IMG/VR virus record: IMGVR_UViG_3300031231_000003
Location: 60,422 to 124,421 of that record
Length of the DNA stretch: 64,000 bases
DNA from: a virus
Strand: one strand, 5' to 3'
Position 1 is the stretch's first letter. Every line of letters begins with the position of its first letter. The notes under the pieces were generated by a model. That model was not told the origin of the DNA, searched no databases, and worked only from the letters and a program-made list of their open reading frames with translations. The translations under genes were made by a program, and so were the position numbers. This document shows positions 8,240-58,800 of the stretch, one piece after another.

Positions 8240-8956
8240 TTACAGATTCTTATCTATGATTATCGTCGTGGACTGAACTGCGCCGCTTTGCTTCCCACTT
8301 ATCGTGATCACACCCTTGATCTTTGTCTTGTCGGCGGTGGTACCGTACACGGTGAACAACGCATCAGTCAGTGACTTCACGCTCAACGTGAACTGACACA
8401 GCGATCCACCGAACGAGTTTTCATTGGGTGATCGAGTGAGGACGTACGTCGCCCTTTGTTGTCCATCAATGTTCTCAGGAACCTGTTGCAGGATCTGGAC
8501 GAATTGGTTCGGAACCTGAACGATGAACGTCTGATCCCTTAGCTCAACGTCGATCGTCGTCTCGTTCCTGATCGTTTGTTCGACCGAGATCGTGGTCGTC
8601 TTTTGCTGGTTTCGACCTATCGTCACGGTGTTGTTCGCGCTAGAGACGTTGCTGTCACCTGACAACGTGAACGAAGGAAGACGAAGGAGGTTTGGGTTAG
8701 AAACTGACACGAGCTTGTACTTTTGAGCGTGGGTTTGATTTGTTAGAGCCTCAAGGATGGGGGTGTTCTTTTCGATCTTTTCTTTACCAATGGTGCGACC
8801 GTACTTCTCAATGATCCCATAATCTATTTCGTCATCGCCGCACGCAAATTTATGGAAACTGAATGATCCATCATTTCGACTTAGTGCTTGCCTTCCGGAG
8901 TCGGTGAGAACCGCATCGAGTAAAATATTGTTACTTGTAGAATTTAAGAAACCCAT
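8240..8956 (-). CDS. Conserved large-phage structural protein (baseplate/tail associated)
   Basis: N-terminus 'MGFL....ILLDAVLTDSGRQALS....F.FHKFACGDDEIDY' recalled from large myovirus structural modules; beta-rich. Confidence 0.6.
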   Translation of the reverse strand: MGFLNSTSNNILLDAVLTDSGRQALSRNDGSFSFHKFACGDDEIDYGIIEKYGRTIGKEKIEKNTPILEALTNQTHAQKYKLVSVSNPNLLRLPSFTLSGDSNVSSANNTVTIGRNQQKTTTISVEQTIRNETTIDVELRDQTFIVQVPNQFVQILQQVPENIDGQQRATYVLTRSPNENSFGGSLCQFTLSVKSLTDALFTVYGTTADKTKIKGVITISGKQSGAVQSTTIIIDKNL

Positions 8957-9867
8957 ATATTCATTCTTTCTTTGATCAAATCGTTTAAAGTTTTTGCTTT
9001 GAAGGCTGTCATGACTTCGTCATCAAAAAATCTGATAAATTTCAAATCATTCTTCGGAAACCAAAGATCCTGTTCACGATCTCGGTCAAATTTTCCCAAA
9101 ATTTGCTTGAATTGTTTACTACCAGCATTCGACCGTTCCACCAAATTTTCACGTCCGTACTTCGTTCCATGCCAATGAATTCCATCAAGTTGAACGTAGA
9201 CGTTTAGTTTTGTGATGAACGCATCGATCGACCAGCCATTCACCGTAATATGACGATCAACATTTCCATACAAGTTACTTAGTTCATTGATCAGTAGATT
9301 TTCAGGATTCGATTGCTTGATCGTCCCATTCTTTACCCATGAGCGAAATCGTTTCGCATTGTACTCGTGAGATCTCATCACGCGTTCGACGAATTCTGAA
9401 TCACATGCGGGTGAAGGTCCACCAAATTTTTCAGTTAACGAAGATTGTGCAATTTCTCGAACTTCTACGCGTCCAAAATTATTTCTCGCTCCATAATTTT
9501 TCAGGAACGTTTCTTCCTTTTTCTTTTTTACGGAAGGATCTTTACTAGGATTGTCGAATCCCGTTTTAGCGAGACAAGTTTGTTTTTTCTTGTCAATGAC
9601 AACTTTCGAAGCGTAAGGATTCTTGCAACCATAATTTCGTTGGAACGTAGCTTCGAGTTTGCTCTTGACAACGCCGTGCTTGAATGCAAAATTCCTGCAT
9701 TCTTCCCCACAAAACGACAAAGAATCACTTTGATTAAACCTACCACTCAAAGTAAGATTGATCTTGCATTGATCACAAAGGTACTTGTATCGTTTGTTTC
9801 GACGACCGGTCACGTCATTAACGATGATTTCAATTCCCACATACATTCTGTAGGTAAGTATTGTCAT
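8944..9867 (-). CDS. Putative homing endonuclease, paralog of 3305..4309
   Basis: 'MYVGIE..CDQC..FCGEEC', 'YGCKNP' repeats, 'IDAF..VYVQLDGIHWH'; likely start at ATG 9846. Confidence 0.75.
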   Translation of the reverse strand: MTILTYRMYVGIEIIVNDVTGRRNKRYKYLCDQCKINLTLSGRFNQSDSLSFCGEECRNFAFKHGVVKSKLEATFQRNYGCKNPYASKVVIDKKKQTCLAKTGFDNPSKDPSVKKKKEETFLKNYGARNNFGRVEVREIAQSSLTEKFGGPSPACDSEFVERVMRSHEYNAKRFRSWVKNGTIKQSNPENLLINELSNLYGNVDRHITVNGWSIDAFITKLNVYVQLDGIHWHGTKYGRENLVERSNAGSKQFKQILGKFDRDREQDLWFPKNDLKFIRFFDDEVMTAFKAKTLNDLIKERMNIWVS

Positions 9868-26164: not shown

Positions 26165-27037
26165 GTGAGTGTCATCTACGTCATTAAGACGTGTAACAAG
26201 AACGTTCAACGTCAAGAAGCTTGTTCGAAGACATGGTTGATGAATGTCGATCCTTCGAACGTTTTCTGGAATGGTGACACCAACGAACATGATATTGAAC
26301 GTGGTTACGTTGGTGTTGCCGAAAAATTCGAACGATTCATGATCAATCACTCGTTCAACGAGTTGAATTGGTACATGTTCGTTGATGATGACACGTATGT
26401 GAACGTGGATTCGCTCCAATCCTGGACTTCCACTCTCGACATCAAGAAATTACTTTGTTTTGGATACCTCTTATCTCCATGTCCTCAACCAACTTCGTTG
26501 GGAAGAGCGTGGACAAACAAGCATAAGGTTCTTCAAGGTGGTGCCGGGATCTTGATGTCGGGTCGATTATGTTTGTATCTACAGAAGACGATCAAGACGA
26601 CTGATTCAAGAGTTGCGAAATCAGTTCAAGACGATGAGTTGATCATGAAAACACCATGTGAGGGAAAACCTCCGTGTTCGTGTTTGTTTTGTGCTGATGA
26701 TCAATGGATCCTTCAATTCGTTCGTGAAGCTGAAGAAAAGATCAAAACAAAAATTGTTCATGATACACCAGTTTCTGCGATAGTTCCCTCAATGAACAAA
26801 GGGGGAAAGTTAGTAAATAAAAAATTAGGTTCTCTTTTTCCCAATTGGGAACCGAATCGAGCGAATTCATTCTATCGTGAGAACAAGAAACTCTACGTTG
26901 ACGTTTTTTTGAAAGGAAGCGTATTTACGATGTCAAACCTTTCGCCCGCTGGAATGAAGGGGCTTGACATGGTGATGAAGAAAGAGTTGAAGAATTCAGA
27001 GAAAACATATGAGTTCCTTGTGAAATATTCGAAATAA
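26165..27037 (+). CDS. Fringe-like glycosyltransferase (GT31-like)
   Basis: 'VIKTC..R.....TW', 'WYMFVDDDTYVN', 'GGAGILMS', 'ADD'. Confidence 0.75.
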   Translation: MSVIYVIKTCNKNVQRQEACSKTWLMNVDPSNVFWNGDTNEHDIERGYVGVAEKFERFMINHSFNELNWYMFVDDDTYVNVDSLQSWTSTLDIKKLLCFGYLLSPCPQPTSLGRAWTNKHKVLQGGAGILMSGRLCLYLQKTIKTTDSRVAKSVQDDELIMKTPCEGKPPCSCLFCADDQWILQFVREAEEKIKTKIVHDTPVSAIVPSMNKGGKLVNKKLGSLFPNWEPNRANSFYRENKKLYVDVFLKGSVFTMSNLSPAGMKGLDMVMKKELKNSEKTYEFLVKYSK

Positions 27038-27945
27038 TGCCGTATTGTCCTCAAACATATAATTTGCCGTCTTATTGTCCCCTTTGTGGAACATTTTTAG
27101 ATGGCAAAAATCAATCAGTTGATCATATTATTGCCATAAACAATTTTAAACAAAAACAAAAAGATATTTTGAACGTAACCTGGTTAAAGGTTGATCTTTG
27201 TAACCCCTGTCATACTAAAAAAACTGATATTGACAATGTTCAAATGTGTTTAAACACGTTCGGTGATTTTAGTTCAAATCATGATGAACTTCTTGTTAAA
27301 AGAATTGCAGCGCTCAAACAATCGCTGAGAGGAAGAATTTCATTATTCAGTAGAAGAAGATATTCTAGACCGGGGCGTTGGTACAAGCGTTGTACACGTA
27401 TAACGACGGTAAAGCAATCACGATTGTTCAAACTAGCGTTGAATTTCATTAAATCTGGAAATACACAACCTCAAATTCTGAATAATGGAATTCTTGCAAA
27501 TTGCATAGACGTGTCAAATCTACGACCTGATTTAGACGAACTAAGGGTCATGATTGCAAAAGAGCTGGTATTTTACAATACGGGACTATTTTTCCCGCAA
27601 TTTTGTGTTAGCGAATGTTATGGGCATGACGATATTTTTGATATTTTTGATTGTTTAGAAACAACTTATGTGCCAGTTTCACAACCTTTGTGGTTCAATG
27701 ATACAGGAGCATACAAAAATTTGGTAAAGTATGATATTAAATTTTTAGACGATGAAACATTGGTTCGTTTTAGAATGTTTGAAACGAAATTTTCGTCAGC
27801 AACGAATCCTCAACACATACTGAACTGGATTTATGTCAAACTTCCCGCCGTTATTCCTCTATGGACAAGAAAATCTACGGTAAAATCCCCACCCAACAAT
27901 CAATTACTACGGATTTTTTTCTTACCTCGAGGAATTCGTTTCTAA
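27037..27945 (+). CDS. HNH (Zn-binding) domain protein
   Basis: 'CPLCG...SVDHIIA...LCNPCHTKK'; AT-rich. Confidence 0.6.
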   Translation: MPYCPQTYNLPSYCPLCGTFLDGKNQSVDHIIAINNFKQKQKDILNVTWLKVDLCNPCHTKKTDIDNVQMCLNTFGDFSSNHDELLVKRIAALKQSLRGRISLFSRRRYSRPGRWYKRCTRITTVKQSRLFKLALNFIKSGNTQPQILNNGILANCIDVSNLRPDLDELRVMIAKELVFYNTGLFFPQFCVSECYGHDDIFDIFDCLETTYVPVSQPLWFNDTGAYKNLVKYDIKFLDDETLVRFRMFETKFSSATNPQHILNWIYVKLPAVIPLWTRKSTVKSPPNNQLLRIFFLPRGIRF

Positions 27946-29904: not shown

Positions 29905-30822
29905 GTGATGAACACGCTACGCAATTACGTGAGATTGATCCTTTCCGAGAGGATCAGGGCGAAAGATCCTTCCTCTTCGTCTTCACGTAAGGCAACGTTC
30001 AACATGAACGACTTCAAGAAATTGAAGCAAAATGATCCACTAGAAGGAACGTTTTTGAAGTACGCGAAACGCAACCTTCAAAGGTTGGGAGAGGGATCAT
30101 CTCGTGAAGTATTCTTACTTTCATCACAAAAGGTTCTCAAGGTCGCGGTGAACGAAAAAGGTATCGCTCAAAACGAAGCCGAGATTGATGTTTATACGAA
30201 TCCCAAGACTCGACCGATCATATCGAAGGTGTACGATTATGGTTCAGGTTACGAATGGCTCGTATCTGAACTAGTTCGTGAATTGACGTACGAAAAAATC
30301 TGCACTTTGTTGGATCTTGATGGTTCTTGGGACTACATGATCAAGGAACTTATCGTTGATAAAATGCCAATTGATAAACTTGTCAAGCGATACACGGAAA
30401 AAAATTTAAGAGTCAAAGATTCAGGAACTGATGTTCCTGGCTCAGTCGTTGTCGATAAACATGGGAACCACGTAGCAGGACCGTTTTTTTCGCCGCCAGG
30501 CTGGGAACACGATCGCGGAACGCCCGAAGCATTTAAAGCAATCGATGAAATTAACGTACAAAATCCCAAGTTGAAACAATTTCTCATTGCATTGAAACAA
30601 ACGATGGAAGTGAACGAGCTCGAACGCGGAGACATTCAACCCCAACATTTCGGTAAAAGCGCTTCGGGCGACATCGTGCTTCTCGATTACGGGTACACGA
30701 CAACGGTTCTTAAGAATCATTACGGGGGCGGTGATATCAGTTGGGATGATGGTGATGATGACGTTGATCCGTCAAATTCGATATCTGGTCGTGAAACCAC
30801 TCGATCACCCGCGGCAAGTTGA
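29905..30822 (+). CDS. Protein-kinase-like fold protein with capsid-leader-like N-terminus
   Basis: 'LGEGSSREVF','VLKVA','QNEAE','WLVSELV','GDI...FG','LLDYG'. Confidence 0.7.
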   Translation: MMNTLRNYVRLILSERIRAKDPSSSSSRKATFNMNDFKKLKQNDPLEGTFLKYAKRNLQRLGEGSSREVFLLSSQKVLKVAVNEKGIAQNEAEIDVYTNPKTRPIISKVYDYGSGYEWLVSELVRELTYEKICTLLDLDGSWDYMIKELIVDKMPIDKLVKRYTEKNLRVKDSGTDVPGSVVVDKHGNHVAGPFFSPPGWEHDRGTPEAFKAIDEINVQNPKLKQFLIALKQTMEVNELERGDIQPQHFGKSASGDIVLLDYGYTTTVLKNHYGGGDISWDDGDDDVDPSNSISGRETTRSPAAS

Positions 30823-30855
30823 ACATCAACAACTTAACGTAATACATTAGAAGTA

Positions 30856-31503
30856 ATGCTCAGATTTGCGACGATTGCGGACGTTCACATCCGCTCGTTA
30901 ACACGTCATGATGAGATTCGAGAAGTGTTCAACGCTTTCGTTAAAGACGTGAAGGAACACAACATCGATCACATTTTCATTGGTGGCGACATCGGTCACA
31001 GTAAAACAGCACAATTTTCGGCTGAGTACGTTGATCTCATGGTTGAGCTGATCAACTTGCTTGGCGATACCGCACCGACCCACATGATCTTGGGAAATCA
31101 CGACCTGAACGAGAGAAACAAGATCAGACAGGATGTGATCACACCCGTTTTAAACGCGGTCAAGCACCCAAACGTGCATCTTTACAAGACTAGCGGTGTT
31201 TACAGTATCGCAGAAGGTTGCAATTTGTGCGTCTTTAGCATCTTTGACGAGGAGAATTGGAAAAATGTGGAACCCGTAGAAGGTGACATCAACATCGCTT
31301 GTTATCACGGGGGCGTTTCGGGAGCAAGGACTGAAACTGATTGGGAACTCACGGGAGGTCTGGAATTAGATCATTTTGCTGAATATGATGCAACTTTCCT
31401 CGGTGACATCCACAAATTTCAATGGCTGGATCATCGTGATTTTGAAATTGAAATTGACGAGGATGAGTTAAAAGATTATCCCGGAGCAATTGTGCTTCCA
31501 TGA
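30856..31503 (+). CDS. SbcD/Mre11 (gp47-like) nuclease, N-terminal fragment
   Basis: 'IADVH','GGDI','LGNHD','CYHG','LGDIH'; stops before the conserved YPGS motif. Confidence 0.88.
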   Translation: MLRFATIADVHIRSLTRHDEIREVFNAFVKDVKEHNIDHIFIGGDIGHSKTAQFSAEYVDLMVELINLLGDTAPTHMILGNHDLNERNKIRQDVITPVLNAVKHPNVHLYKTSGVYSIAEGCNLCVFSIFDEENWKNVEPVEGDINIACYHGGVSGARTETDWELTGGLELDHFAEYDATFLGDIHKFQWLDHRDFEIEIDEDELKDYPGAIVLP

Positions 31504-31718
31504 AATTTAGTGATCTCAGACCGGGAGATATGTACATCACGTCTGGTTCTACCGTTTATCCTCAGCATGAATCAGCAACCGTTGTAGCCGTAACTGAGAA
31601 TCATATAACGTGGTTGATTACGGAAAATAGATTGACAAAGATCTATCGTTTTAAGAATTTCAATGATCAACCTTTCGATGAAAAGGGAATCACTTGGTTG
31701 AGGGTGAAAAATGTCTAA
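31500..31718 (+). CDS. Small xLxPGD-family protein inside the split sbcD
   Basis: 'MKFSDLRPGDMYI...ATVVAV'; overlaps both neighbours. Confidence 0.65.
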   Translation: MKFSDLRPGDMYITSGSTVYPQHESATVVAVTENHITWLITENRLTKIYRFKNFNDQPFDEKGITWLRVKNV

Positions 31719-34284
31719 GAAGATTCGAATTCGTATAAACCGACCGGCGATAGGGTATCCCGGATCGATGCTTCAAAATACCTACTCAGAAGATCTGAAG
31801 CATTTTTGGCTGAAATGGGAGTTCAAATCGAGCAACGACTTCACAGTCGTTCCTGTTGAACTTCCGAATCCAAAGCCATTTTTGACAATCGATTGGAACG
31901 GTTCCGTCAATAAAACGGTCGACCAGTTGAAGAACTTCAAGGCTGGTTCAAGGGTTCGTATCAAGTCTGATGCAAAGATCCCACTTAAGTACTCAACGAA
32001 GCTCGTTTCAACGATCAAGAACGAGATGGGAGCATCGGAGGTCATCTTCAAGGAAGAACAGGCAACCGACATCTCTCGAATCAACATGGGTTCCGTTCAG
32101 TTGCTTCGTACGGATCTGAGGAATTCGGACGTATTGTTTCAGCTTTTAAAGGAACATTACAAGTCATCCGAAATGCATGAGGATGAATGGGTGAAGATCT
32201 ACGATCTTCTTCGTAAGTACGTCTCGATTCTCACGAGCGAGGATGTGATGAGGAACGTCAAATGGTCATTGAGAAGACTTCGCTTCAACAACATGTATTC
32301 CTATGGCGAAGATAACACGATCAATTTCGATGCATTGTCGGGCCTCGTAGGTATATTCGGGCCAAACAGAAGCGGCAAGTCTTCAATTCTCGGAACCCTA
32401 ATGTACGGGTTGTTCAATGCGACCGATAGAGGTCCAATCAAGAACATGTTGCTGTGCAACACTCGTAAGCAATCATGCTCATCAAAGATCGTGATCAAGC
32501 TCGGGGGTCGTGATTACCTCGTTGAGCGTTCAACGAACAAGAAGTCGAACAAGCAGGGTGACATCTCCGCCGCGACGAACCTCAGGATTTGGGAACTCAT
32601 CGATGGAAAACCTGTTGAAAGCACGGGGGAGCAACGTTCAGACACCGAGAAAACGCTGAGAAAGCTCATCGGAACGTCGGATGATTTTCATTTGATGTCG
32701 ATATCGACGCAGCGAGATGATAATTCAATCCTCGAACACGGGTCCACGAAAAGACGACAGATCATTTCAAGGTTCCTTGACATTGACGTCCTCCAGCAGA
32801 TCCATGAACTTGCACGTGATGATGTTCGTGAACAAAAAGGTCTCATCAAGAACCTGAACGAGGATTTGAATGAATCAATAAACGATAGACGTAACGTGTC
32901 ATCCAATCTCGATCAACAGATTGAACTCAACGTTTCTAATCTCGAAAGTTCACGTGAAAGGTTGTTCGATCTAAAGACTCAGCTCGCAGCTTTCAAGGGA
33001 TTCAAGCATGTTTCGATCGAGGAGCTCGAATCACACCGTGAATCGATCGACGAGTTGAACGGAAAATTATCGAAGGTTGTTTCAAGCATTGAAAAAGCGG
33101 GAAGGGACTTACAAGAAACGGATGAAAAAATAGAACGTGTTTCGACGGTTCTTCAGGATTACGATCTTGTGACGATGAAGCAACAGCTCGATTCATTCAA
33201 GAAGCTGCGTTCAAGCGTCAATTCGATGCTTCAAGCGTACACGAACGAGAACAACTCGTTCGAACGTAGCAAGAAGACGATCAAGATCCTGCAAGACGTT
33301 CCTTGTGGCGATTCGTTTCCAACGTGTAAGTTCATCAAGGATGCTCATGACCTGAAACCAACGCTGGACGATCAACGTGATCGAGTAAATTCTTTGAAAC
33401 GATCGTACGATGAAGCGAATCAATCGCTCGGCGGTATCGATGAAAAAAAGATGGTCGACAACGTTTCGAAGGTTGAATCGTTGAAGGAAAAACTGGGACA
33501 ATTGAAGTTGAACAAGGCTCAGCTCGAAACCCAATTGACAAGGCTCAATCACAACAGGAACGAGATTCAGCGAACTTTGGACGTTGCGATCAATGAATTC
33601 GAGGATCTCGAATCAAGGACCGACAAAAAGAAGAACGATGAACTGACCTCACTTAAATCATTGATCTTTTCTGCCGAAGCCGGAATATCCGTCTTGGAAA
33701 AAGCGAATATCTCTTTGGCAACACAAAAAGGTAAGATTGAATCCGAGATCGAACGTTTGTTGAAGGATCAAAAGAGACGAATCGATATCCTTCAAAGGAT
33801 GAAGTACCACGAGGTGATCGAATCCAGCTTTTCAAAGAATGGAATTCAGGATGCGATCCTCTCATCAATGCTTCCTGCGATCAATGAAGAGGTTGCAAAG
33901 ATCCTCAATGGAATCGTGAACTTCACCGTTGAGCTCGAGAAGCTACCGAATGATGATCAAATCGACATCTACATAAACTATGGTGATGGTGACAAGAGGG
34001 TTCTCGAACTCGGAAGCGGCATGGAAAAGTTCATCAGTTCAATCGTTCTACGAGTTGCATTGAACAACATCTCCACCTTACCGAAGAGCGATGTGTTCTT
34101 CATCGACGAAGGATTCGGGTCGTTGGATGCGAGCAGCGTGGAGGAGTGTTCAACATTGCTTCAATCTCTGAAGAAGTACTTCAAGACGATCATTGTCATC
34201 ACACACGTTGACGTGATGAAGGACATCGTCGATTCCACGATTGAGATCACACGAAACGGAAAGGACTCACATGTCTCGTGTTGA
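31711..34284 (+). CDS. SbcD C-terminal fragment fused to SbcC/Rad50 (gp46-like) ATPase
   Basis: 'IGYPGSMLQ..YSE'; Walker A 'GPNRSGKSS'; Zn hook 'CGDSFPTC'; 'GSGME'; Walker B 'FFIDEGFGSLD'; 'VITH'. Confidence 0.92.
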   Translation: MSKKIRIRINRPAIGYPGSMLQNTYSEDLKHFWLKWEFKSSNDFTVVPVELPNPKPFLTIDWNGSVNKTVDQLKNFKAGSRVRIKSDAKIPLKYSTKLVSTIKNEMGASEVIFKEEQATDISRINMGSVQLLRTDLRNSDVLFQLLKEHYKSSEMHEDEWVKIYDLLRKYVSILTSEDVMRNVKWSLRRLRFNNMYSYGEDNTINFDALSGLVGIFGPNRSGKSSILGTLMYGLFNATDRGPIKNMLLCNTRKQSCSSKIVIKLGGRDYLVERSTNKKSNKQGDISAATNLRIWELIDGKPVESTGEQRSDTEKTLRKLIGTSDDFHLMSISTQRDDNSILEHGSTKRRQIISRFLDIDVLQQIHELARDDVREQKGLIKNLNEDLNESINDRRNVSSNLDQQIELNVSNLESSRERLFDLKTQLAAFKGFKHVSIEELESHRESIDELNGKLSKVVSSIEKAGRDLQETDEKIERVSTVLQDYDLVTMKQQLDSFKKLRSSVNSMLQAYTNENNSFERSKKTIKILQDVPCGDSFPTCKFIKDAHDLKPTLDDQRDRVNSLKRSYDEANQSLGGIDEKKMVDNVSKVESLKEKLGQLKLNKAQLETQLTRLNHNRNEIQRTLDVAINEFEDLESRTDKKKNDELTSLKSLIFSAEAGISVLEKANISLATQKGKIESEIERLLKDQKRRIDILQRMKYHEVIESSFSKNGIQDAILSSMLPAINEEVAKILNGIVNFTVELEKLPNDDQIDIYINYGDGDKRVLELGSGMEKFISSIVLRVALNNISTLPKSDVFFIDEGFGSLDASSVEECSTLLQSLKKYFKTIIVITHVDVMKDIVDSTIEITRNGKDSHVSC

Positions 34285-34576
34285 CAAGTTCGAACCGTAC
34301 CTGAACGATAGATTGATCCTCAAGAAGGAAAATTACGTTTTGATCAAACCGAATCGTGAATCGAGGTTGATTCCACTCGGTTGTTCGGTATGTGAATTCT
34401 TATACAGGACTCACAACGATGAGAAGGCACACGAAACGTACGGGTGTTGTCACAGATGTGCTGAGGTGTTCGTGTACCCTGATCGAAAACGATGGTCAAA
34501 AGGATGGCGACCGAATGAAGATCAGATCAAAAGAGACGTCGAATCACGACAATCTTTATCGATCATGATGAAGTAA
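34271..34576 (+). CDS. Hypothetical Cys-containing protein
   Basis: 'CSVC...CCHRC...W..GWRP'; AGGA RBS before ATG 34271. Confidence 0.55.
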   Translation: MSRVDKFEPYLNDRLILKKENYVLIKPNRESRLIPLGCSVCEFLYRTHNDEKAHETYGCCHRCAEVFVYPDRKRWSKGWRPNEDQIKRDVESRQSLSIMMK

Positions 34577-34577
34577 A

Positions 34578-35162
34578 ATGCGTAATTACGATTGGTTCAA
34601 AAAAACTTACGATTATATCGTTTACGATGTTCGAAATAACTTGCTGATTGCGGATTTCGAAGTTCATCATATTTTGCCGCGCTCTTTGGGTGGTTTGGAT
34701 TCTCTCGAAAACAGAGTTAGATTAACGTATCGTCAACATTTCATTTGTCATTGGTTACTTTGGAAAATGTCGACCGGGAAAGATCGTGAAAAGATGGCAC
34801 TTGCGTTCAAGTTCATGAAAGAAGGCCAACAAGGAAAATTTGTTGTATTGAATTCAATAACGTTCGCCAGAGTGAAGAAGGAAGCTTCACTTTTTCAGAG
34901 CAATCGACAAATTGGGATTAAAAAGCCGTATTTGAATGGAAATCAATTCGCAAGACACAAGCATACTCCCGAACAAAATTTGAGAAAAAGTAAACGTCAA
35001 ATTGGTGGTAAAAGAAAACCCGAAACGATTGAGAGGATGAAAATTGCACAAAGTAAATCCGAAACTAAAAATCAAATTAGAGAACAATTGAAACGATATT
35101 GGGCAAAATGGCGCGTAGATAACAATCGTAAACCTCGTATCGGTGATGAAAAATATTTATGA
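34578..35162 (+). CDS. HNH/NUMOD3 homing endonuclease
   Basis: 'EVHHILPRSLGGLD..EN.VRLTYRQHFICHWLL'; 'HKHTPEQ','KRKPETIERMK'. Confidence 0.8.
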   Translation: MRNYDWFKKTYDYIVYDVRNNLLIADFEVHHILPRSLGGLDSLENRVRLTYRQHFICHWLLWKMSTGKDREKMALAFKFMKEGQQGKFVVLNSITFARVKKEASLFQSNRQIGIKKPYLNGNQFARHKHTPEQNLRKSKRQIGGKRKPETIERMKIAQSKSETKNQIREQLKRYWAKWRVDNNRKPRIGDEKYL

Positions 35163-35628
35163 TATGGACATTGATCAATTATTAAAGGATGAAGAACTTG
35201 AGTTTGATCCTTTAGCGAATAAACTTGATAAAGGAGTTGATTCTGAGAATCAAGATATTGACTATTCAGCTCTCGCGCAAAGTTTTGATACGTCGTGGGG
35301 GAGATCTTCTACGCCGAAAACGGCTCAATTCTCCGTAAAATTCCAGCTCGATGGTGCGAATCGAATGATCGCAAGTTACTGTGCAATCGTCAATTTTGCA
35401 AGCGAACGTGACATGATTGAGCAAAAGCGAAGGTACGCATCTGAATCAACTGATATCTTGAAGGCTCACGTCAAGTTCATTAAGGACCGTTACAAGGGAC
35501 TTTGTGGAAAGACGCTCAGTGTCGACGAGATGTTCACAAGTGATTCCGTTGAATGTATCTCAATGAACTTTTATAATCCTCGAAAAGTTGCTTATTTTCG
35601 CAAAAAAACCGCCTATCAAATCGGGTAA
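35143..35628 (+). CDS. Hypothetical protein upstream of terminase
   Basis: 161-aa ORF in the head module. Confidence 0.55.
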   Translation: MMKNIYDMDIDQLLKDEELEFDPLANKLDKGVDSENQDIDYSALAQSFDTSWGRSSTPKTAQFSVKFQLDGANRMIASYCAIVNFASERDMIEQKRRYASESTDILKAHVKFIKDRYKGLCGKTLSVDEMFTSDSVECISMNFYNPRKVAYFRKKTAYQIG

Positions 35629-39554: not shown

Positions 39555-42500
39555 ATGGCAAACAAGCAATTAAAAGGATCAGAATCGCCCGAGAAGTTCT
39601 TTAAAAGAATGACTCGTATCTTCAAGAGCGGCGTTCAGGTCAAGCGAAAGATTCGTGCTCAAGATACCGCCGTCGTCGTTGCCGATAAGACGAAATCGTC
39701 TGGAACGTTGCTGTTTCAGAAGTCGTTCTCTCCAACGTACGCTTCAATCACGAGCAATGCTTACAACATCGCTGAGCGTCAAGTTCGTTACCAGGATTTT
39801 CAGCAGATGGAACAGACTGCTGAGATCGCTGCTGCCTTGGATCTATGGGCGGATGAATCTTCAAGTCCTGATGAACACGGGCGAGCTTTGCACATCTTTT
39901 CTGACAACGAGAAGATCAAGCAGGTTCTTGATGACCTGTTCTACAATCGATTGAACATCGAATTCAACCTTAGAAGTTGGGTTCGATCATGTTGCAAGTT
40001 CGGTGACTTTTTTCTATTGAATGACGTGCATCCTACTGAGGGTGTCGTTCATGCGTACCCAATTCCAGTCAATGAGATCGAACGCGAGGAAGGGTACGAC
40101 CGCGATGATCCAATGGCGGTTCGCTTTCGCTGGGTCTCGCTTGGTAATAGGATCCTACAGAACTGGGAAGTATCTCATTTCAGGTTGCTAGGAAATGATT
40201 CGTTCCTGCCATATGGTTGCTCGGTCATTGAAGCAGCAAGACGTGTGTGGCGTCAATTGATCCTCATTGAGGATGCGATGCTTGTCTACCGTGTCACAAG
40301 GGCACCCGAACGTCGAGTGTTCTACATCGATGTCGGTAACCTCCCAGCGAACGACATTCCTGCGTACGTTGAAGCTCAAAAGCAAGCGCTTCGAATGAAT
40401 CAGGTGCTTGATTCACAGACGAGCCGGGTTGATCTTCGTTATAATCCACTTCCAGTACATAAGGATACACCAATTCCATTACTTGATGGAACGACGTTGA
40501 CGATTGAGAATCTTTCGAACAAAATGAAGGAGAATTCCAATTGGACACCTTGGGTTTACTCGATACAAGACAAGTCGCTTCGTATTGTTCCAGGTAAGGT
40601 CACCTGGTGCGATAGGAATTACGTTGCGAAGAAGCTGGTGAAGGTTTGGCTTGACAACGATTCGTACGTTCTCACCGCTCCAGAACACCCATTTGTGCTG
40701 AGGGATGGATCAAGCAAGAGAGCTGATGAGTTGGTGGTGGGTCAGGCTTTGATGCCATTTTACAGGGAACTAAGTGTTTTTAAGGAAAAAGTTGATGGTA
40801 CAGATGATTTAGACGGATATGAAAAAATTTATGATCCAAAAACTCAAAGATTCGTTTATACACACCGTCGTGTTGCTGAAATTTTATCTCAACCAATAAC
40901 CTTACCCGAAGGAAATAATAATTGGGTAACTCATCATGTTGATTTTAACAGGTTAAATAACGATCCTTCGAATTTATTGAGAATGGGAAATGTAGATCAC
41001 TGGTATTTACATGCGTCTGAAATTACACGATACAATAAATCTGATCTTAAGAAAGAACGAACATCAAAGAACAACATTGAACGAAATTCAGTTGGTGCCA
41101 TGTCTTGGTACAACGGTTCGGATCTTCACAAGTCTCATAATGAGAATCGTAAGATCGGTCAATTGAAAGATTGGGGAGATCAAGAAAAGAAAACTCAACG
41201 AAAGTTGAACATGCAATGGAAAATTCCGAACGAGATGATCGAGAAGATCAGTGATCTCATTCGAAAGGATCCAAAAATTTCTCGGGTTAAAATTCACGAA
41301 GAGATCAAGAATGATCAAGAATTGATGAACGCATTGATGTCGATTCAAACGCCTGCAAGAGATGTTTCAAAGTTCAGTTATCAAGGCTGGATGTGCGAAT
41401 TTCAACGAAGAGGTCAAGGTAATGGATTTACTCAAATTCGTGAAGCTGTGTTGAATTACAAGAATCACAAGGTTTCTAAGATTGAATTCTTGGACGTTGA
41501 CGGCGAAGACGTCTATTGCATGACCGTTGTTGGTTCCGCCGGTGAAGACGATAGACACAATTTTATGGTCCTCGGGTTGAATGAGGATGGATCTCAATCA
41601 GATTCTGGTGTTTCATTATGGAACAGTGTAGACGAAGATTATTTCATTCCTATTCGTGGAAGCGACACAGGTACCAAGATCGACACACTCGCTGCGGGGC
41701 AGAATACAGGAACCGTTGAAGACGTTGCTTACATTCAAAAGAAACTGTTCGCAGCCCTCAAGATTCCAAAGGCTTACCTTGGTTACGAAGAAGGTCTGAG
41801 TTCTAAGAGCACGTTGGCACAGATGGACATTCGATTCTCTCGTTCAGTCTCCGTAATTCAACGCACATTCATTGCGGAACTGAATAAACTCGCAATCATT
41901 CACTTGTTCACGCTCGGATTTCAGAACGAGGATCTTGCTAACTTCACGTTGCACTTGTCTAATCCGTCAACCGTCGCGGAGCAACAAAAGCTCGAACTTT
42001 GGCGGACCAGATTCGAAATTGGGGGTTCGTTACCCGAAGGTATGGGAACGAAGCAATTCGTTTACAAGACAATCTGGGGTCTCAATGACGATGAGATCGA
42101 CCAGATCAACAACGACCGTGTCAAGGAAACCCTTGTGGATGCCACAATCGCTGCGATGGCAGAAGGTGGAGAAGCTTCCGGCCCCGGAGGCGGTGGAGGT
42201 GGTGGCGGGGGAGCACCTGCAGGTGGAGGATTCGATCTTGATGCCGGTGGCGAGGATGAGGACATCTTTAGCGATGACGATGCAGGTGGAAGCGCGGATG
42301 ATTCTGGTGGTGAGGATGAGATCCCTGACGAGGAGAACGCAGGTCCCGAACCTCTCGAGGATGAGGATCCCGATTTGGAATTATTGACATCGAGCGATGA
42401 TCAGGATGATCCCGAGACGTTCAAGATTCCTTCAATGAGGGATTCACCCGTGAAGGTTGCAAAGCAACTGCAGAAATCGCTTTACAACAGATCACGTCAT

Positions 42501-42854
42501 CGTACACATGGTCCATCAAAGACTCACATGCCCGACTTTCTAGGCATGGTGAACAACAAACGTCGCGAAGATACAATGAACGACCCGTACGATACGAATG
42601 CAATGAAGGCACTTATCACGAATCCGTTCGGTGAATCAATTCGCAGGCCAAATGCGATATTGACGAATGATATCATGAGTGCGTTGAACAACATGAAACG
42701 TGAACACGATTCCGATCGTGTCGCAAAAGGTGGTACGTTGTTGTTGAATGAAGGTGATGAAGGTGTCGAAATTGAACTTGACGACTCGACGTCTGATGAC
42801 GATGAACTATCGTTGCAAGAACAAGTATTCCATAATGAAAGAGAAGAAGAATAA
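39555..42854 (+). CDS. Portal protein (T4 gp20-like) containing an intein
   Basis: 'EIAAALD..ADE','RVWRQL.LIEDAMLVYR.TRAPERRVFYIDVGN','EDYFIP.RG...TKIDTL','KKLFAALKIP'; acidic Gly-rich C-terminus. Confidence 0.95.
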   Translation: MANKQLKGSESPEKFFKRMTRIFKSGVQVKRKIRAQDTAVVVADKTKSSGTLLFQKSFSPTYASITSNAYNIAERQVRYQDFQQMEQTAEIAAALDLWADESSSPDEHGRALHIFSDNEKIKQVLDDLFYNRLNIEFNLRSWVRSCCKFGDFFLLNDVHPTEGVVHAYPIPVNEIEREEGYDRDDPMAVRFRWVSLGNRILQNWEVSHFRLLGNDSFLPYGCSVIEAARRVWRQLILIEDAMLVYRVTRAPERRVFYIDVGNLPANDIPAYVEAQKQALRMNQVLDSQTSRVDLRYNPLPVHKDTPIPLLDGTTLTIENLSNKMKENSNWTPWVYSIQDKSLRIVPGKVTWCDRNYVAKKLVKVWLDNDSYVLTAPEHPFVLRDGSSKRADELVVGQALMPFYRELSVFKEKVDGTDDLDGYEKIYDPKTQRFVYTHRRVAEILSQPITLPEGNNNWVTHHVDFNRLNNDPSNLLRMGNVDHWYLHASEITRYNKSDLKKERTSKNNIERNSVGAMSWYNGSDLHKSHNENRKIGQLKDWGDQEKKTQRKLNMQWKIPNEMIEKISDLIRKDPKISRVKIHEEIKNDQELMNALMSIQTPARDVSKFSYQGWMCEFQRRGQGNGFTQIREAVLNYKNHKVSKIEFLDVDGEDVYCMTVVGSAGEDDRHNFMVLGLNEDGSQSDSGVSLWNSVDEDYFIPIRGSDTGTKIDTLAAGQNTGTVEDVAYIQKKLFAALKIPKAYLGYEEGLSSKSTLAQMDIRFSRSVSVIQRTFIAELNKLAIIHLFTLGFQNEDLANFTLHLSNPSTVAEQQKLELWRTRFEIGGSLPEGMGTKQFVYKTIWGLNDDEIDQINNDRVKETLVDATIAAMAEGGEASGPGGGGGGGGGAPAGGGFDLDAGGEDEDIFSDDDAGGSADDSGGEDEIPDEENAGPEPLEDEDPDLELLTSSDDQDDPETFKIPSMRDSPVKVAKQLQKSLYNRSRHRTHGPSKTHMPDFLGMVNNKRREDTMNDPYDTNAMKALITNPFGESIRRPNAILTNDIMSALNNMKREHDSDRVAKGGTLLLNEGDEGVEIELDDSTSDDDELSLQEQVFHNEREEE
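40452..41624 (+). mobile_element. Intein (391 aa) with HNH endonuclease in the portal gene
   Basis: Inserted in RYNPL/SVDEDYFIP; block A 'PVHKDTPIPLLDG', block B 'LTAPEHPF', HNH 'HHVDFNRLNNDPSNL', block F 'VYCMTV..HNF', terminal WN/S. Confidence 0.88.
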
Positions 42855-52882: not shown

Positions 52883-55800
52883 GTGTCATTCATAATTGCT
52901 GATTTTGTCAGAGAAACATCTCTAACTACCGGCACGTTCGCAATTCAGCTAAGCGGGTTAAGGTCACCTGGACAAACGTTTTCATCCGTGCTCGCGAACG
53001 GTGACACGCTAGATTACACGATAGCTCATGCTTCGTTGAATGAGTTCGAAACGGGTCTTGGAACGTACGATTCAGGAACGAATTCATTAGCTCGTTCGCT
53101 AGTTTACGCTTCATCGAATGGAAATTCTTTAGTAAATTTCAGTCCAGGTACGAAGAACGTTGATCTAAGCTATCCCGCTGAGCGTATCAAGCAAACTACA
53201 AATAGCATTCTGAATCTATCTGCTTCGGTGACAGCGAGTTTCTTGTCAGCAAGCAATTCGTTATCGTTCACGTCATCATCGTTATCTGTAACGGATCGTT
53301 CAATTCAATCGCAGATCAACTCCGTTTCAACGTCAGCAACTGCAAGCTTTTTGTCCGCATCGAATTCGATCACGACAACCTCTGCATCGATAAACAATAC
53401 AATCACAAACCTCAGAACGCCACAATTCGTTGTGCTTGCAGCAACGGGTGAAACCACGAATGAACGTGTTCTGACGTCAGGTGGGGGCGTGACACTAGCT
53501 GATGCAGGTGCGGGTTCTACGTTGACGCTAGGAATCAATAATTCCATCGTTGCAACGGTCTCGGGAACAACGTTCACTCAATTGACGGGATCCATTCAAA
53601 AAACCGCATCCGGTGTTTCATACCTGGCTGGAAGCCCCGACGTTTTCATCTCTTCGGCCTCAAATGGTCAGATAGGGGTTTCATTAAATCCTTCGTTCAG
53701 TTCTTCTCTCGTCAACGTCATTAATTCCGCGACATCTTCGTTCAATACATTGACATCACGAATCTCCTCCGTAGAAGTTTCTGCGACAGCGTCATTCTTG
53801 TCCGCGTCTAATTCGATTGGGGGACTGAGCTCGAGCGTCGTTCTGTCGTTCGTATCTTCGTCTAACGCTCTTACTGCGGCCTCATCGTCGTTCGTAACGA
53901 CGATCAACAATTTAAGTTCCACCGTCGTTTCTTCGTTCCTGTCTGCATCTAATTCTATTTCTGCGACTTCGGCATCGTTGAGCGTCACCGATCGATTGCT
54001 TTCTCAGTCTTTGGTCAACGTTATCGTTTCGACGACGAGCTCGTTTAACACTCTGACAAGCAGGATTACCTCAGTCGAGGTATCTGCAACCGCAAGTTTT
54101 CTTTCAGCTTCTAATTCAATCAACTCATTGAGTTCAAGCGTTGTCTTGTCATTCGTTTCTTCATCGAACGCTTTGACAACAACATCAGCATCGTTTGCAA
54201 CATCTGAAAGATTATTGTCACAATCTCTAGTTAACGTCATCAATTCTGCGACGTCTTCGTTCAACACGTTGACAAGCAGGATTGCTAGCGTTGAGGTCAG
54301 CGCAACCGCATCATTCTTATCTGCGTCTAACTCGATCACTGCGACATCATCGTCGTTCGTTACGACGATCAACAATTTAAGTTCAACTATTGTCGCTAGC
54401 TTCGTATCTGCGTCAAACGCTTGGATTGACAAGGCTTCGAATCAAACGATGACGGGAAACAAGTCATTTTCGGGCGGTTTGTCTGGCTCGGTTCAGAACC
54501 TATCGAACGGTACTTCGTACCTCGTTGCTGGTACGAACGTTACAATTGCATCGGCTTCGAGTGGACAAGTAACGATCTCTGCTATTTCTGCTGGTTCCGG
54601 TGATCCGAACGCGTCTTATGTTGTGATCGGTCTTACTGGATCACTGAATGCTGAACGTGCATTGACTGCTGGCACGGGATTGTTGTTGACTGATGTTGGT
54701 GTCAATTCGAACGTTACACTCGCGATCACTTCCGAATTCAGTTCATCATTACGGGACGTCATTGCATCGGCAACGTCTTCGTTAAATGTTCTTACTTCAC
54801 GAATCACCTCTGTCGAAGTTTCTGCCACTGCGTCGTTCTTATCAGCATCTAATTCAATCGCTGTGACATCATCTTCGTTTGTGACGACGATCAATAATCT
54901 TAGTTCGACGGTTGTATCATCGTTCCTATCGTCATCAAATGCCACCCAATTAACCTCGGCTTCGTTTGCAACGTCAGAACGCCTTCTTTCGCAATCGCTG
55001 GTTAATGTGATTACCTCTGCAACGGCATCATTTAACACGTTGACATCACGAATCTCCTCCGTAGAAGTTTCTGCGACAGCGTCATTCTTGTCCGCGTCTA
55101 ATTCAATAGGTTCGTTAAGTTCAAGCGTCATTCTTTCATTCGCTTCTTCGTCCACGTCACTACAAGCAACATCAGCTTCGATCAACGGAGCGATCACCAA
55201 TCTTCGAGTACCAAGTTTTGTCACCCTAGGAACGTCTTCTGAGTTATCAAACGAACGCGTTCTAACTCAAGGCGGTGGAATCACGTTGACTGATGCGGGG
55301 GCTGGATCCACAACAACCCTCGGAATCAACAACAATTTGATAGCAACGGTCACAGGATCCACCTTTGCTCAACTTTCGGGTTCCCTTCAAAGGTTAGCAG
55401 ATGGAACTTCTTACCTCGTAGCGGGGGCTGGAATGACAGTCTCAAGTGGTTCGAATGGTCAGATAACTTTAACAACCACGCTCGCTGATCCCGGTGCTGC
55501 GTATGTCTTGATTGGAACGACAGGATCTCTTGCGAACGAGAGAGCACTAGCTGTTGGCGCGGGATTGCTTTTGGTGGACGGTGGGGCGGGTGGAAACGTA
55601 ACTCTATCGATAACGTCTGAGTTCAGCTCATCCCTTAGGGATGTCATTGTATCCTCAACGTCATCGTTGAACGTTTTGACATCGCGAATTGCTTCAGTTG
55701 AAGTATCTGCGACGGCCTCGTTTTTGTCTGCTTCTAATTCAATCGGATCATTGAGCTCAAGCATTGTTCTTTCATTCGTATCAGCGTCGAACTCGTTACA

Positions 55801-58800
55801 ATCAACATCGGCTTCATTTGCAACGTCAGAACGCTTGCTTTCTCAGTCCCTCGTTAATGTTATCGTCTCAACAACTGCAAGCTTTTTGTCTGCTTCAACG
55901 TCAATTACAACGACGTCGGCATCAATAAACTCAACAATCAACGCATTGAGAATTCCTTCGTTCATTGCGCTTGCATCGTCAAACGAGCTAACAAATGAAC
56001 GAACTTTGACTCAAGGCGGGGGTATCACATTAACGGATGCTGGTGCTGGTTCGACGCTAACATTGGGAATCAACAACAACGTTATTTCCACCATTTCGGG
56101 TTCAACATTTTCCCAATTAACAGGTTCCATTCAAAAACTCGCTGACGGAACTTCGTACCTTGTCGCTGGTTCTAACATTACGATTTCATCCGCATCGAAC
56201 GGTCAGATCATGATTTCTTCTCCCACATCGGGAGGCGCCGCTGATCCGGGAGCCGCATACGTTCTAATTGGAACGACGGGTTCACTTGTAAACGAAAGAG
56301 CTTTAGTTGCTGGTACTGGTTTATCGTTGACTGATACTGGTGCTGGCGGAAACGTAACTTTAGCTATTACTTCTGAATTCAGCTCATCGCTGAGAGATGT
56401 CATTGCGTCTTCGACATCCTCATTTTTATCTGCTTCGAATTCAATCACTGCAACCTCATCTTCGTTCGTAACGACGATCTCAAACCTAAGTTCAACGGTT
56501 GTCGCCTCATTTCTATCATCGTCAAATGCATTAACTTTTACTTCCGCTTCGTTCACCAGTACTGATAGATTGTTATCACAATCGCTGGTGAACATCATTG
56601 TTTCGACAACAAGCTCGTTTAATACGCTGACATCAAGAATTGCGTCCGTCGAAGTATCAGCAACAGCATCGTTCCTATCTGCTTCGAATTCAATCGGATC
56701 ATTGAGTTCAAGCGTTATCTTGTCATTCGCATCTTCGTCGAACGCTCTAGCGGCAACATCGTCCTCGTTCGTAACGACGATCTCGAATCTCAGTTCGACC
56801 GTCGTAGCCTCGTTCTTATCGGCATCGAACTCGATCTCCACAACATCAGCATCACTCAGTGTTACCGATCGATTATTATCTCAGTCTCTAGTTAACGTCA
56901 TAATTTCTACAACATCATCTTTCAACACGTTAACGAGCAGGATTGCTTCGGTCGAAGTATCTGCAACAGCTTCATTTTTATCAGCTTCAAACTCAATCAC
57001 TGCGACATCATCGTCGTTCGTAACGACAATTTCAAATCTAAGTTCAAGTGTTGTTACAAGTTTCGTATCCGCATCAAACGTTTGGGTTGACAAGGCCTCG
57101 AATCAAACGATTTCAGGCAATAAATCATTCTCTGGTGGTCTTTCAGGTTCAGTTCAGAATCTATCGAACGGTACGTCGTACATCGTCGCTGGAACGAACA
57201 TAACGATCACCTCTGCTTCAAGTGGTCAGGTAACCATTTCATCAACTGCGACGGGTGGGGGTGCCGATCCGGGTGCAAATTACGTGCTCATCGGAACCAC
57301 AGGATCGCTTGCGAATGAACGAGCCTTAACCGCCGGAAGTGACTTAAATCTAACCGATGCGGGTGCCGGGGGAAACGTAACCATTGGATTGAATCAATCG
57401 TTCAGTTCGTCGTTGGTGAATGTAATCAATTCAGCAACCTCTTCTTTCAATGCATTAACGAGCAGGATTGATTCCGTTGAAGTTTCTGCCACGGCATCGT
57501 TCCTGTCGGCTTCGAATTCGATCGGTGCATTGAGTTCAAGCGTTGCATTATCTTTCATATCGGCATCGAATGCCTTGACAACGACCTCTTCTTCGTTCGT
57601 AACGTCGATCAGCTCCTCGTTTTCAGATTCGATCTTTGCAGGATTGAGAGTTTCGCAATCAACGTTCGATGCGACTGGAAGCGTCTCATCGATTCCAGAT
57701 TCGTACACAACGAATCCCGCGACGCAAACTAACAACCTTCGACGTCCGACGTTTCAATACTCGGACAACGGACAACCTTGTTTAAGGTTCCTCACGAACG
57801 ACACGCTGAGCTGGCCCATAACACCTTCGAATTCTGGAAATCAAAGGTGGGGCGTTGCATTTTGGGTCAAGTTCGATGATCTATCTGGAGTGAAGGCTCT
57901 CTTCACCACAATGACAACCGGCGGTGCTTCCGCGAATCGACTTCGATTCTACCAGCAAACTTCCGGTTTGACATGCGAGATCTACGCAACGTCAGTGGCC
58001 GGCAGGTTCGTGAATGCTGCGAACTGTCTTACTTTGGGTTGGAACTTCGTATCGTTCGAGTACGACTCGTTGCAACCCACAGAAGCTACCAAGGCGGTGA
58101 TCACCGTCAATGGTTCAGCACGTACAACGTCGTTCGGTAATCAAGGCGGGGGCGCTGCGATCGGTGACCTGATCTCGGTCACGGGAACTCATGTCATCGG
58201 TGACATTCAAAATGGAGCGCCCAGCCTTCCATTGAATGGCGTCATCGGTCCGAATTTATTCCTGTTCGGAAGTAAAATGTTCCAAGCAACAACGGGATTG
58301 TTGACGAATCGAGCTCGCCTCCAATTGATGGATTACGAGAAACCGATTGATCTTGCAACGATCCAGCCAGGACTCGTTGATCTCACGACGACGCAATCGA
58401 TCACCGGAAGCAAGACATTTCTGAATGGACTTTCGGGATCATTACAACAATTGTCGGGGGGATCATCGTACCTCGTCGCTGGTACGAACGTAACGATTGC
58501 TTCGGCTTCGAATGGACAGGTAACGATTTCATCAACGGCAACGGGAGGTTCGGGTGATTCGAACGCATCGTACGTCGTCATCGGGTTAACTGGTTCACTT
58601 AGCGCGGAACGTGCTCTTACAGCAGGAACTGGTTTGTCGTTGATCGACGGTGGTGCCAATTCGAACGTTACGTTAGCAATCACGAATGAATTCAGTTCAT
58701 CGTTACGAGACGTCATTGCAACAACAACATCTTCGTTCAATAACTTGACGTCAAGAATTGCGTCGGTCGAAGTTTCAGCAACGGCGAGTTTCCTTTCTGC

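Follow-up and report, generated by a model that had tools for sequence, protein, structure and literature searches.

A viral Mre11-Rad50 fusion gene broken inside its nuclease domain, with oppositely charged peptides at the break

Introduction

How does an essential enzyme survive a cut inside its catalytic domain? The question is raised by a locus in a 64,000-nucleotide stretch of viral DNA (hereafter the window: positions 60,422 to 124,421 of IMG/VR virus record IMGVR_UViG_3300031231_000003), in which the Mre11/SbcD nuclease is encoded in two pieces. The first open reading frame (ORF) of this locus, ORF1 (30856-31503; all coordinates are those of the window and lie on its + strand unless a strand is given), encodes a 215-residue N-terminal fragment of the Mre11/SbcD nuclease domain that ends in ...LGDIHKFQWLDHRDFEIEIDEDELKDYPGAIVLP. 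The last, ORF3 (31711-34284; 857 residues), begins with MSKKIRIRINRPAIGYPGSMLQNTYSE (also given as MSKKIRIRINRPAIGYPGS) and runs into a complete Rad50/SbcC. Between them lies ORF2 (31500-31718), a 72-residue ORFan. The start of ORF2 overlaps the stop of ORF1 (ATGA, 31500) and its end overlaps the start of ORF3 (ATGTCTAA, 31711), overlaps that would keep translation coupled from ORF1 through ORF3; a Shine-Dalgarno-like GAGGG (31700-31704) can also be read 6 nucleotides upstream of the ORF3 ATG. ORF3 is read in the frame of ORF1, and the intervening 207 nucleotides carry many stops in that frame.

We consider it probable that this locus is a broken Mre11-Rad50 fusion gene whose two products reassemble through the strands of a small insert in the nuclease domain. 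An earlier note on this DNA, made from the sequence alone, had proposed a split nuclease that is put back together by its junction peptides, and several of its claims are taken up below.

Results

The two halves of the nuclease

ORF1 matches the Pfam family Metallophos (E-value 3.4e-10; 41.1 bits against a cut-off of 21.5) and an SbcD-like family of PHROGs (3.2e-20). It has all five phosphoesterase motifs, I to V (D9/H11; G44-D45/H48; G80 N81 H82 D83; H151; G183 D184 I185 H186), and their metal-binding residues are invariant or nearly so across 97 aligned sequences (alignment A1, described below). ORF3 matches AAA_23 (8.6e-11; 43.3 bits, cut-off 27), SbcC_Walker_B and the SbcC-like PHROG 77 (7.4e-54), while SMC_N matches both of its ends with 32.3 bits, under the cut-off of 40. 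Its residues 1-188 (31711-32274) correspond, by alignment A2 and the model of a relative presented below, to the last Mre11 core strands, the capping domain and a linker, with the YPGS motif (31756-31767) within the last nuclease core strands. Residues 189-857 (32275-34284) are the Rad50/SbcC part covered by the Pfam matches, and its ATPase motifs are set apart, as in Rad50/SbcC ATPases, by a long coiled coil with a hook. Named after those of ABC/SMC ATPases, these motifs are a Walker A (32359-32382), a hook-like PCGDSFPTC (33301-33327), a signature-like GSGME (34012-34026) and a Walker B (34096-34116), followed by an ITHV (34198-34209). The earlier note was correct in describing the second ORF of the pair as the rest of SbcD fused to SbcC/Rad50, with a 72-residue ORF in between. 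The note was also right that no intein is involved: the Pfam scan found no intein or Hint family in ORF1 or ORF3, and the pieces added at the break, being only ~20 and ~10 residues long, are far too short for one.

The intact form of the gene is readily found. The best phage match to ORF1 is a single ORF of 1066 residues, beside a primase, in the Microcystis phage Mel-JY01; this protein reads GDIHKMQYMDTERRLAYPGSLIQQ across the break point of the window. Among 163 rows (162 loci and the window), 129 have the two domains fused in one ORF of ~1045-1090 residues. The others comprise 13 fused forms truncated at a contig end, 15 split forms, five split forms with no C-terminal part in view and one unreadable row. 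Since the relatives mostly have a single fused Mre11-Rad50 ORF, the window, with its two polypeptides in place of one, carries a fusion gene that was secondarily broken within the nuclease domain and not a broken stand-alone SbcD. In the relatives with short hairpins the corresponding point lies 10-15 residues past motif V.

Conservation of the split and of its charged ends

The split is by no means peculiar to the window. A length-restricted protein search (118-377 residues) gave 110 clusters, and inspection of their C-termini identified 100 of these as N-fragments of ~213-245 residues that all end in the same tail; the homolog survey that the earlier note had suggested thus finds both break and tail conserved. 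The remaining clusters are five pieces of fused forms, one (P0077) with a seemingly uncut insert that is cut by a contig end, and four that are truncated or unclear. Alignment A1 holds 96 of the clusters plus ORF1 (97 rows), P0057, P0077, P0087, P0092, P0098, P0099, P0101, P0103-P0108 and P0111 having been left out. Over these 97 sequences the tail has the consensus R-[DE]-V-E-[LI]-x-I-D-E-x-[DE]-L-x-x-Y-P-[GD]-A-E-[VI]-[ILV]-E, and its key positions (E in 82/97, L in 88/97, Y in 91/97, set against a mean column identity of 53%) are conserved to the same degree as the catalytic domain. In ORF1 the acidic tail is F196-P215 (31441-31500). By homology to the model of L088 (see below) it would consist of a first strand, FEIEID (31441-31458), a short helix, EDELKD (31459-31476), and YPGAIVLP, which contains a second strand (31477-31500). 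The closest fused relatives with short hairpins are missing this tail.

The other side of the break is its electrostatic counterpart. ORF3 opens with a basic head, M1-R11 (MSKKIRIRINR, 31711-31743), that would form the third strand of the insert. The net charge of the N-fragment tails averages -6.6 and is -3 or lower in 95 of the 97, and that of the C-fragment heads is between +3 and +6 in all 15. This charge pattern is not due to chance, and the charge-complementary junction peptides pointed out in the earlier note are a property of the family. The break accordingly carries oppositely charged tails unique to it, of the kind described by Crona et al. (2011), and separates two adjacent same-strand ORFs that jointly make one enzyme, as in the fractured genes of Dassa et al. 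(2009). Both halves with their tails are visible in 22 distinct loci; the split is old, common and conserved. There is a warning here for annotation: in such phages, a 215-residue 'phosphoesterase' of the ORF1 type with an 'SbcC' as its neighbor is one half of a Mre11-Rad50 fusion.

The insert and its predicted structure

The tail and the head have uncut counterparts. In five relatives (L088, L133, L139, L181 and L188) a whole insert of ~34 residues is found in one piece, L088 reading GDIHKFQFLDYRSYELMINEDDLHLYQGAEIIEFLSEKKLKINLKKPWIAYPGS across it. Among the fused forms, 120 loci have 10-15 residues from GDIH to YPGS, 16 have 20-23 and three have 45-46; further values are 24, 27 and 47. An AlphaFold2 model of the first 425 residues of L088, made with a 54-row alignment, has a predicted local distance difference test (pLDDT) score of 89.2 and a predicted template modelling score of 0.77, with pLDDT values of 92-96 in the insert. 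Foldseek gives 80 matches to this model with E <= 1e-3, headed by 3qg5_D (4.9e-14) and including 7yzo_A (E. coli SbcCD), 4lty (SbcD) and 1ii7 (P. furiosus Mre11), so that the predicted fold is that of a nuclease with its capping domain, albeit on an uncut homologue and not on the window protein. DSSP assigns to the model a strand at 188-200, a helix at 201-206 and strands at 211-217 and 220-232, and the equivalents of the acidic and basic strands lie in one sheet. According to the model, the break in the family of the window is at a two-residue turn between the second and third of these insert strands. In this arrangement strand 2 turns tightly back into strand 3, and strand 1 together with strand 3 prolongs the native hairpin, which would put strand 3, the basic head, in the middle; it is most likely, then, that the C-fragment supplies the middle strand of the insert.

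The charges of the two strands also appear to change in concert. Reading them by hand, in a register chosen by pairing hydrophobic with hydrophobic residues, we find the conserved E of strand 1 opposite the R/K of strand 3 in the split family; in the uncut L133, L139 and L188 it is R/K that faces D/E, and in L181 both charged positions are shifted by two residues together. Such a covariation fits a direct pairing of the strands.

Complex prediction, another of the checks suggested by the earlier note, was carried out with ORF1 (alignment A1) and residues 1-200 of ORF3 (alignment A2). The interaction prediction score from aligned errors (ipSAE) was 0.88, 0.87 and 0.88, compared with 0.00 for the best of three controls; the runs share at least 87% of their contacts and the pLDDT of the partner is at least 71. 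This pair passes the mark applied to such predictions, as do 116 of 157 solved pairs and 2 of 215 mismatched pairs. The confident interface (residues 182-203, 205, 208 and 210-215 of chain 1; 2-21 of chain 2) takes in both the tail and the head. When ORF1 is folded alone the domain is kept (pLDDT 90.3), with no strand at the equivalent of strand 1 (pLDDT 67-69). The complex prediction shows ORF1 to be without the core strands that ORF3 would supply. The beta-zipper of the earlier note survives these models in part: the strands do share a sheet and an interface, but the element is a strand-helix-strand-strand insert, and the break did not create a zipper of two strands.

Put together, these observations suggest the following scheme. 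A Mre11-Rad50 (SbcD-SbcC) fusion would have been broken in the tight turn between strands 2 and 3 of a strand-helix-strand-strand insert, which would itself extend the native beta-hairpin that leads from motif V (GDIH) to the YPGS strand. The five metal-binding motifs would come from ORF1, as would strands 1 and 2 and the helix; ORF3 would bring strand 3, the last core strands, the capping domain and the whole of Rad50. Translation of each protein would begin at a start codon of its own, served by a ribosome-binding site, and the halves would rejoin non-covalently, the C-fragment completing the beta-sandwich of the nuclease. The basic strand would slip between strands 1 and 2 of ORF1, with one face pairing E/D with R/K and the other made up of I/V/L. 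On the strength of the models, reassembly of the two products without splicing is very probable.

A different division of labor is also conceivable, in which the native Mre11 core alone rejoins the halves while the insert contacts DNA, Rad50 or a second Mre11 protomer, or is simply a tolerated scar. We consider this rather unlikely, but it has something to recommend it. The same insert is kept in the uncut relatives and hence is not confined to split proteins. Native Mre11 core makes up a large share of the predicted interface (residues 1-11 of chain 1 with 33-38 of chain 2), and the tails therefore may not be what holds the halves together. In the split NrdA of Aeromonas phage Aeh1, moreover, the tails are dispensable for the heterodimer and needed for a later assembly step (Crona et al. 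2011, PMC3045599). The core on its own, however, does not account for the presence of both tail and head within the confident predicted interface, for the loss of predicted structure by strand 1 in ORF1 folded alone, for the keeping of opposite charges in nearly all tails and in all heads, or for the way in which these charges swap sides together in the uncut group.

Several points weigh against a reassembly through the insert strands, which we nevertheless prefer. The lowest-error pairs of the complex prediction (residues 3-7 of chain 1 with 33-38 of chain 2) belong to the native core and are not tail-head pairs. Since the two chains are halves of a fold with many solved structures, the high score, owed in part to likeness to these, does not show binding. 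The structural support is prediction throughout, and the strand order, and hence the 'middle strand', is deduced from DSSP and the interface lists. The tails of the earlier note do covary, in the sense that charges swap together in the uncut group, but this swap represents one or two evolutionary events only. The conserved end of the tail (AEV..E) may partly reflect the ribosome-binding site that it encodes, and, as the insert is also found uncut, its conservation may serve a role other than reassembly. The NrdA precedent is one in which the halves associate without their tails. Finally, the trees presented below neither order the insert relative to the split nor tell uncut forms from re-fusions.

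What lies between the halves

In 19 of the 22 split loci there is no gene at all between the halves. The junction offsets of these 19 are -4 in eleven cases, -1 in two, -8 in two, and 0, +1, +16 and +24 in one each, and a GAGG/GGAG motif precedes the start of the C-terminal part. Given these varied frame relations, the start codons proper to each half and the GAGG/GGAG motif, the halves must be two separately translated genes.

This bears directly on the notion that the locus still yields a single polypeptide, by removal of the 207 nucleotides through RNA splicing, by ribosomal bypass between two copies of TATCCCGGA (31477-31485 and 31756-31764, a 9-nucleotide repeat encoding YPG) or by frameshifting. 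The common frame of ORF1 and ORF3 and the flanking of the interval by the YPG repeat would suit such an explanation, but we judge it most improbable: in the relatives the frame of one half relative to the other varies, and each half has a start codon to itself; strands 2 and 3 would be lost in a hop from one repeat to the next; and an Rfam scan of 30500-32500 revealed no intron, its only match being U7 at an E-value of 0.75. No recoding signal was found either. Contigs from four runs labelled metatranscriptomic (X1-X4, soil metagenome) hold the phage at 30600-32600 and show no joint over the interval, which is weak evidence, because one of these runs, perhaps the origin of the record itself, has an identical 81.8-kb contig and the library may therefore hold DNA. 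As for the repeat itself, a target-site duplication or a bypass site was considered and rejected: the 9-nucleotide identity occurs in one of the 22 split loci, namely the window, and so looks like a codon coincidence. That the locus is a decaying pseudogene or an assembly artefact is scarcely credible, for this has only the bare fact of an interrupted gene in its favor and is contradicted by the identical 72-residue protein on six contigs, the 100 clusters with the same N-fragment length (~213-224 residues), the invariance of all the catalytic motifs and a tail that is conserved like the domain.

The gene between the halves of the window is ORF2 and not the free-standing homing endonuclease gene of the Dassa et al. 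(2009) fractured genes. Of the 22 loci, only the window has this 72-residue ORF. Its GC content is 0.379, as against 0.45 in the flanking genes, and the identical protein is recorded on six contigs. ORF2 has no Pfam or PHROG match, nuclease families included; a 5.8-billion word-index search returned only ORF2 itself, there is no paralogue in its own record and no tblastn match in 161 loci, and its atlas scores are all below 0.9. The only match in an exhaustive search, to the RTX/HCBP repeat protein P0127, was discarded as uninformative, since it covers ~32 residues in repeated copies and is inflated by the repeats. The earlier note had entertained the inserted ORF as the agent that fractured the gene. 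With 19 of 22 split relatives having no intervening gene, ORF2 is not shown to be the cause of the split, and we take it for an unrelated passenger that came into the gene junction at a later time.

Where another ORF does intervene, it looks like an endonuclease gene. The intervening ORFs of L002 (305 residues), L003 (289 residues) and L119 have N-terminal zinc-ribbon-like repeats and matches to PD-(D/E)XK nuclease families: Tn7_TnsA-like_N in L002 (27.2 bits against 26.5, the sole match above a curated cut-off), Vsr in L119 (7.8e-5, under its cut-off), and PvuRts1I-like_N, DUF559 and MTES, all weak, in L003. The L119 locus (L119:4001-8224) is a second kind of split, in another lineage and with short tails (GDIHKQQYLGYREYEE / MKKLVPWIGFAGS). 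There a 69-residue ORF and the 298-residue Vsr-like ORF sit in the tip of a 20-residue hairpin, in what looks like a fresher endonuclease insertion.

Genes of this sort are not lacking in the window either. It has five homing-endonuclease-like genes by family matches: 3305-4309 (+; DUF7487, 6.6e-21), 5606-6694 (+; DUF7487, 2.6e-12), 8944-9867 (-; Tn7_TnsA-like_N and NUMOD3, 8.3e-11), 27037-27945 (+; HNH, 1.1e-4) and 34578-35162 (+; a weak HNH match). The first three share their families with the ORFs between the SbcD halves of relatives, and the last is directly downstream of ORF3 and its 111-residue neighbor.

Phylogeny and origin of the split

Two phylogenies were made of the family, a quick IQ-TREE tree, built from 44 rows after removal of the hairpin columns, and a FastTree tree of 130 rows. 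In the former the tailed split forms, with the exception of L002, fall in one clade of 35 rows (99 in the Shimodaira-Hasegawa-like approximate likelihood ratio test), the base of which is unresolved. The partner of the window in this tree is L146, a fused form with a 20-residue hairpin (96), and that of L003 is L088, which is uncut (93); the split state must have changed at least twice. Both L133 and L139 have an internal Met at the position of the old start codon, a hint from their sequences of re-fusion. The origin of the break may have been a Vsr/TnsA-like homing endonuclease that entered the turn and was later lost in most lineages.

One could go further and suppose that the insert is a mobile clasp able to complement itself, carried along with Vsr/TnsA-like homing endonucleases when the flanks are co-converted. 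We think this quite unlikely to be correct. The endonuclease would bring with it the means to repair the gene that it breaks; once it was lost, the enzyme would persist stably as two genes or, if these fused again, would have gained a new insert domain. The same clasp would be expected at breaks in other phage genes and might be usable as a natural split-protein tag.

Discussion

Three earlier papers provide the context for this locus. Single-polypeptide Mre11-Rad50 proteins are abundant in aquatic viral metagenomes, often beside a primase gene (Yoshida, Claverie and Ogata 2011, PMC3175470). The window and its relatives share this primase-adjacent layout; the window differs in being secondarily broken inside the nuclease domain and not at the boundary of Mre11 and Rad50. 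Neither 'split' nor 'fission' occurs as a word in that paper.

The nearest precedent for the break is one intein-less SbcD-like gene, split into adjacent ORFs, that Dassa et al. (2009, PMC2677866) described from the Lake Gatun GOS data. Its upstream half has 25 extra C-terminal residues and its downstream half 9 extra N-terminal ones, both absent from unsplit homologues, and a Vsr-like endonuclease ORF lies between the halves. The extra residues resemble the ~20 and ~10 found here, and the Vsr-like ORF resembles those of L002, L003 and L119. In contrast, the window has only the ORFan ORF2 between its halves, most of its relatives have nothing, and its downstream half continues into Rad50. The Dassa locus is a single case, and the consulted part of the paper proposes no role for the extra residues. 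The same authors proposed that in fractured phage genes with split inteins the intein halves pair electrostatically via antiparallel strands. The gene layout of the window is the same as in those genes. It differs from them in its short added pieces with no Hint match, in that no splicing is expected, and in that the uncut version, with 45-47 residues, is modelled as part of the host fold.

The idea of charged tails comes from the Aeromonas phage Aeh1, in which NrdA is split by mobE into NrdA-a and NrdA-b, whose ends at the break bear short tails of opposite charge (Crona et al. 2011). These tails were found by experiment to be essential, though not for the formation of the heterodimer, and such tails were predicted on other fragmented genes. 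The two cases have in common an essential phage enzyme, the site of a homing endonuclease, charged tails, and a reassembly, proposed for the window, with neither RNA nor protein splicing. The polarity is reversed, however: in NrdA the basic tail (pI 10.4) is upstream and the acidic one (pI 3.8) downstream. The need for the tails was shown by experiment in Aeh1, whereas the tails described here are known from sequence and models, and those of the window jointly form an insert that is also found uncut in relatives. A further search of the full-text literature turned up nothing more on split Mre11/SbcD.

What is already in print is consequently one intein-less split SbcD-like gene and the charged-tail idea for the split NrdA; what is new here is a larger and better-resolved family of such a split. 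No new kind of mechanism is revealed. The family does offer, in its ~100 split clusters, a natural system for asking how an essential enzyme survives a cut inside its catalytic domain, in states with and without a homing endonuclease and with uncut forms that have the same insert. It also makes the 2011 idea of 'tails as antidote' testable on a second, structurally well-understood enzyme that comes with natural charge-swapped controls.

Other features of the window

The source of the window is a 124-kb record with a CheckV completeness of 36%. By the large terminase the nearest isolates are the Flavobacterium phage vB_FspM_immuto and Mel-JY01, at ~39% identity, and blastn of 30000-35200 against phages gave no match. 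On either side of the split gene there is a further ORF. The space from the primase to ORF1 holds a 305-residue ORF without a family (29905-30822, +), which the syntenic L003, L005 and L013 lack; a Cys-rich ORF of 111 residues (34241-34576, +) follows the Rad50 part and is conserved in L003, L005, L012 and L013. Farther downstream, a T4-like portal protein (39555-42854, +) has 1099 residues, ~2x the usual length. Portal_T4 matches it in two stretches (5.4e-62), between which there is a weak HNH_3 match (E 0.018, residues 455-474), and the interruption may be an intein or an endonuclease insertion. Lastly, an ORF of 2461 residues (52883-60268, +), with matches to CBM_X2 and Gly_rich_2, perhaps encodes a fibre or an adhesin.

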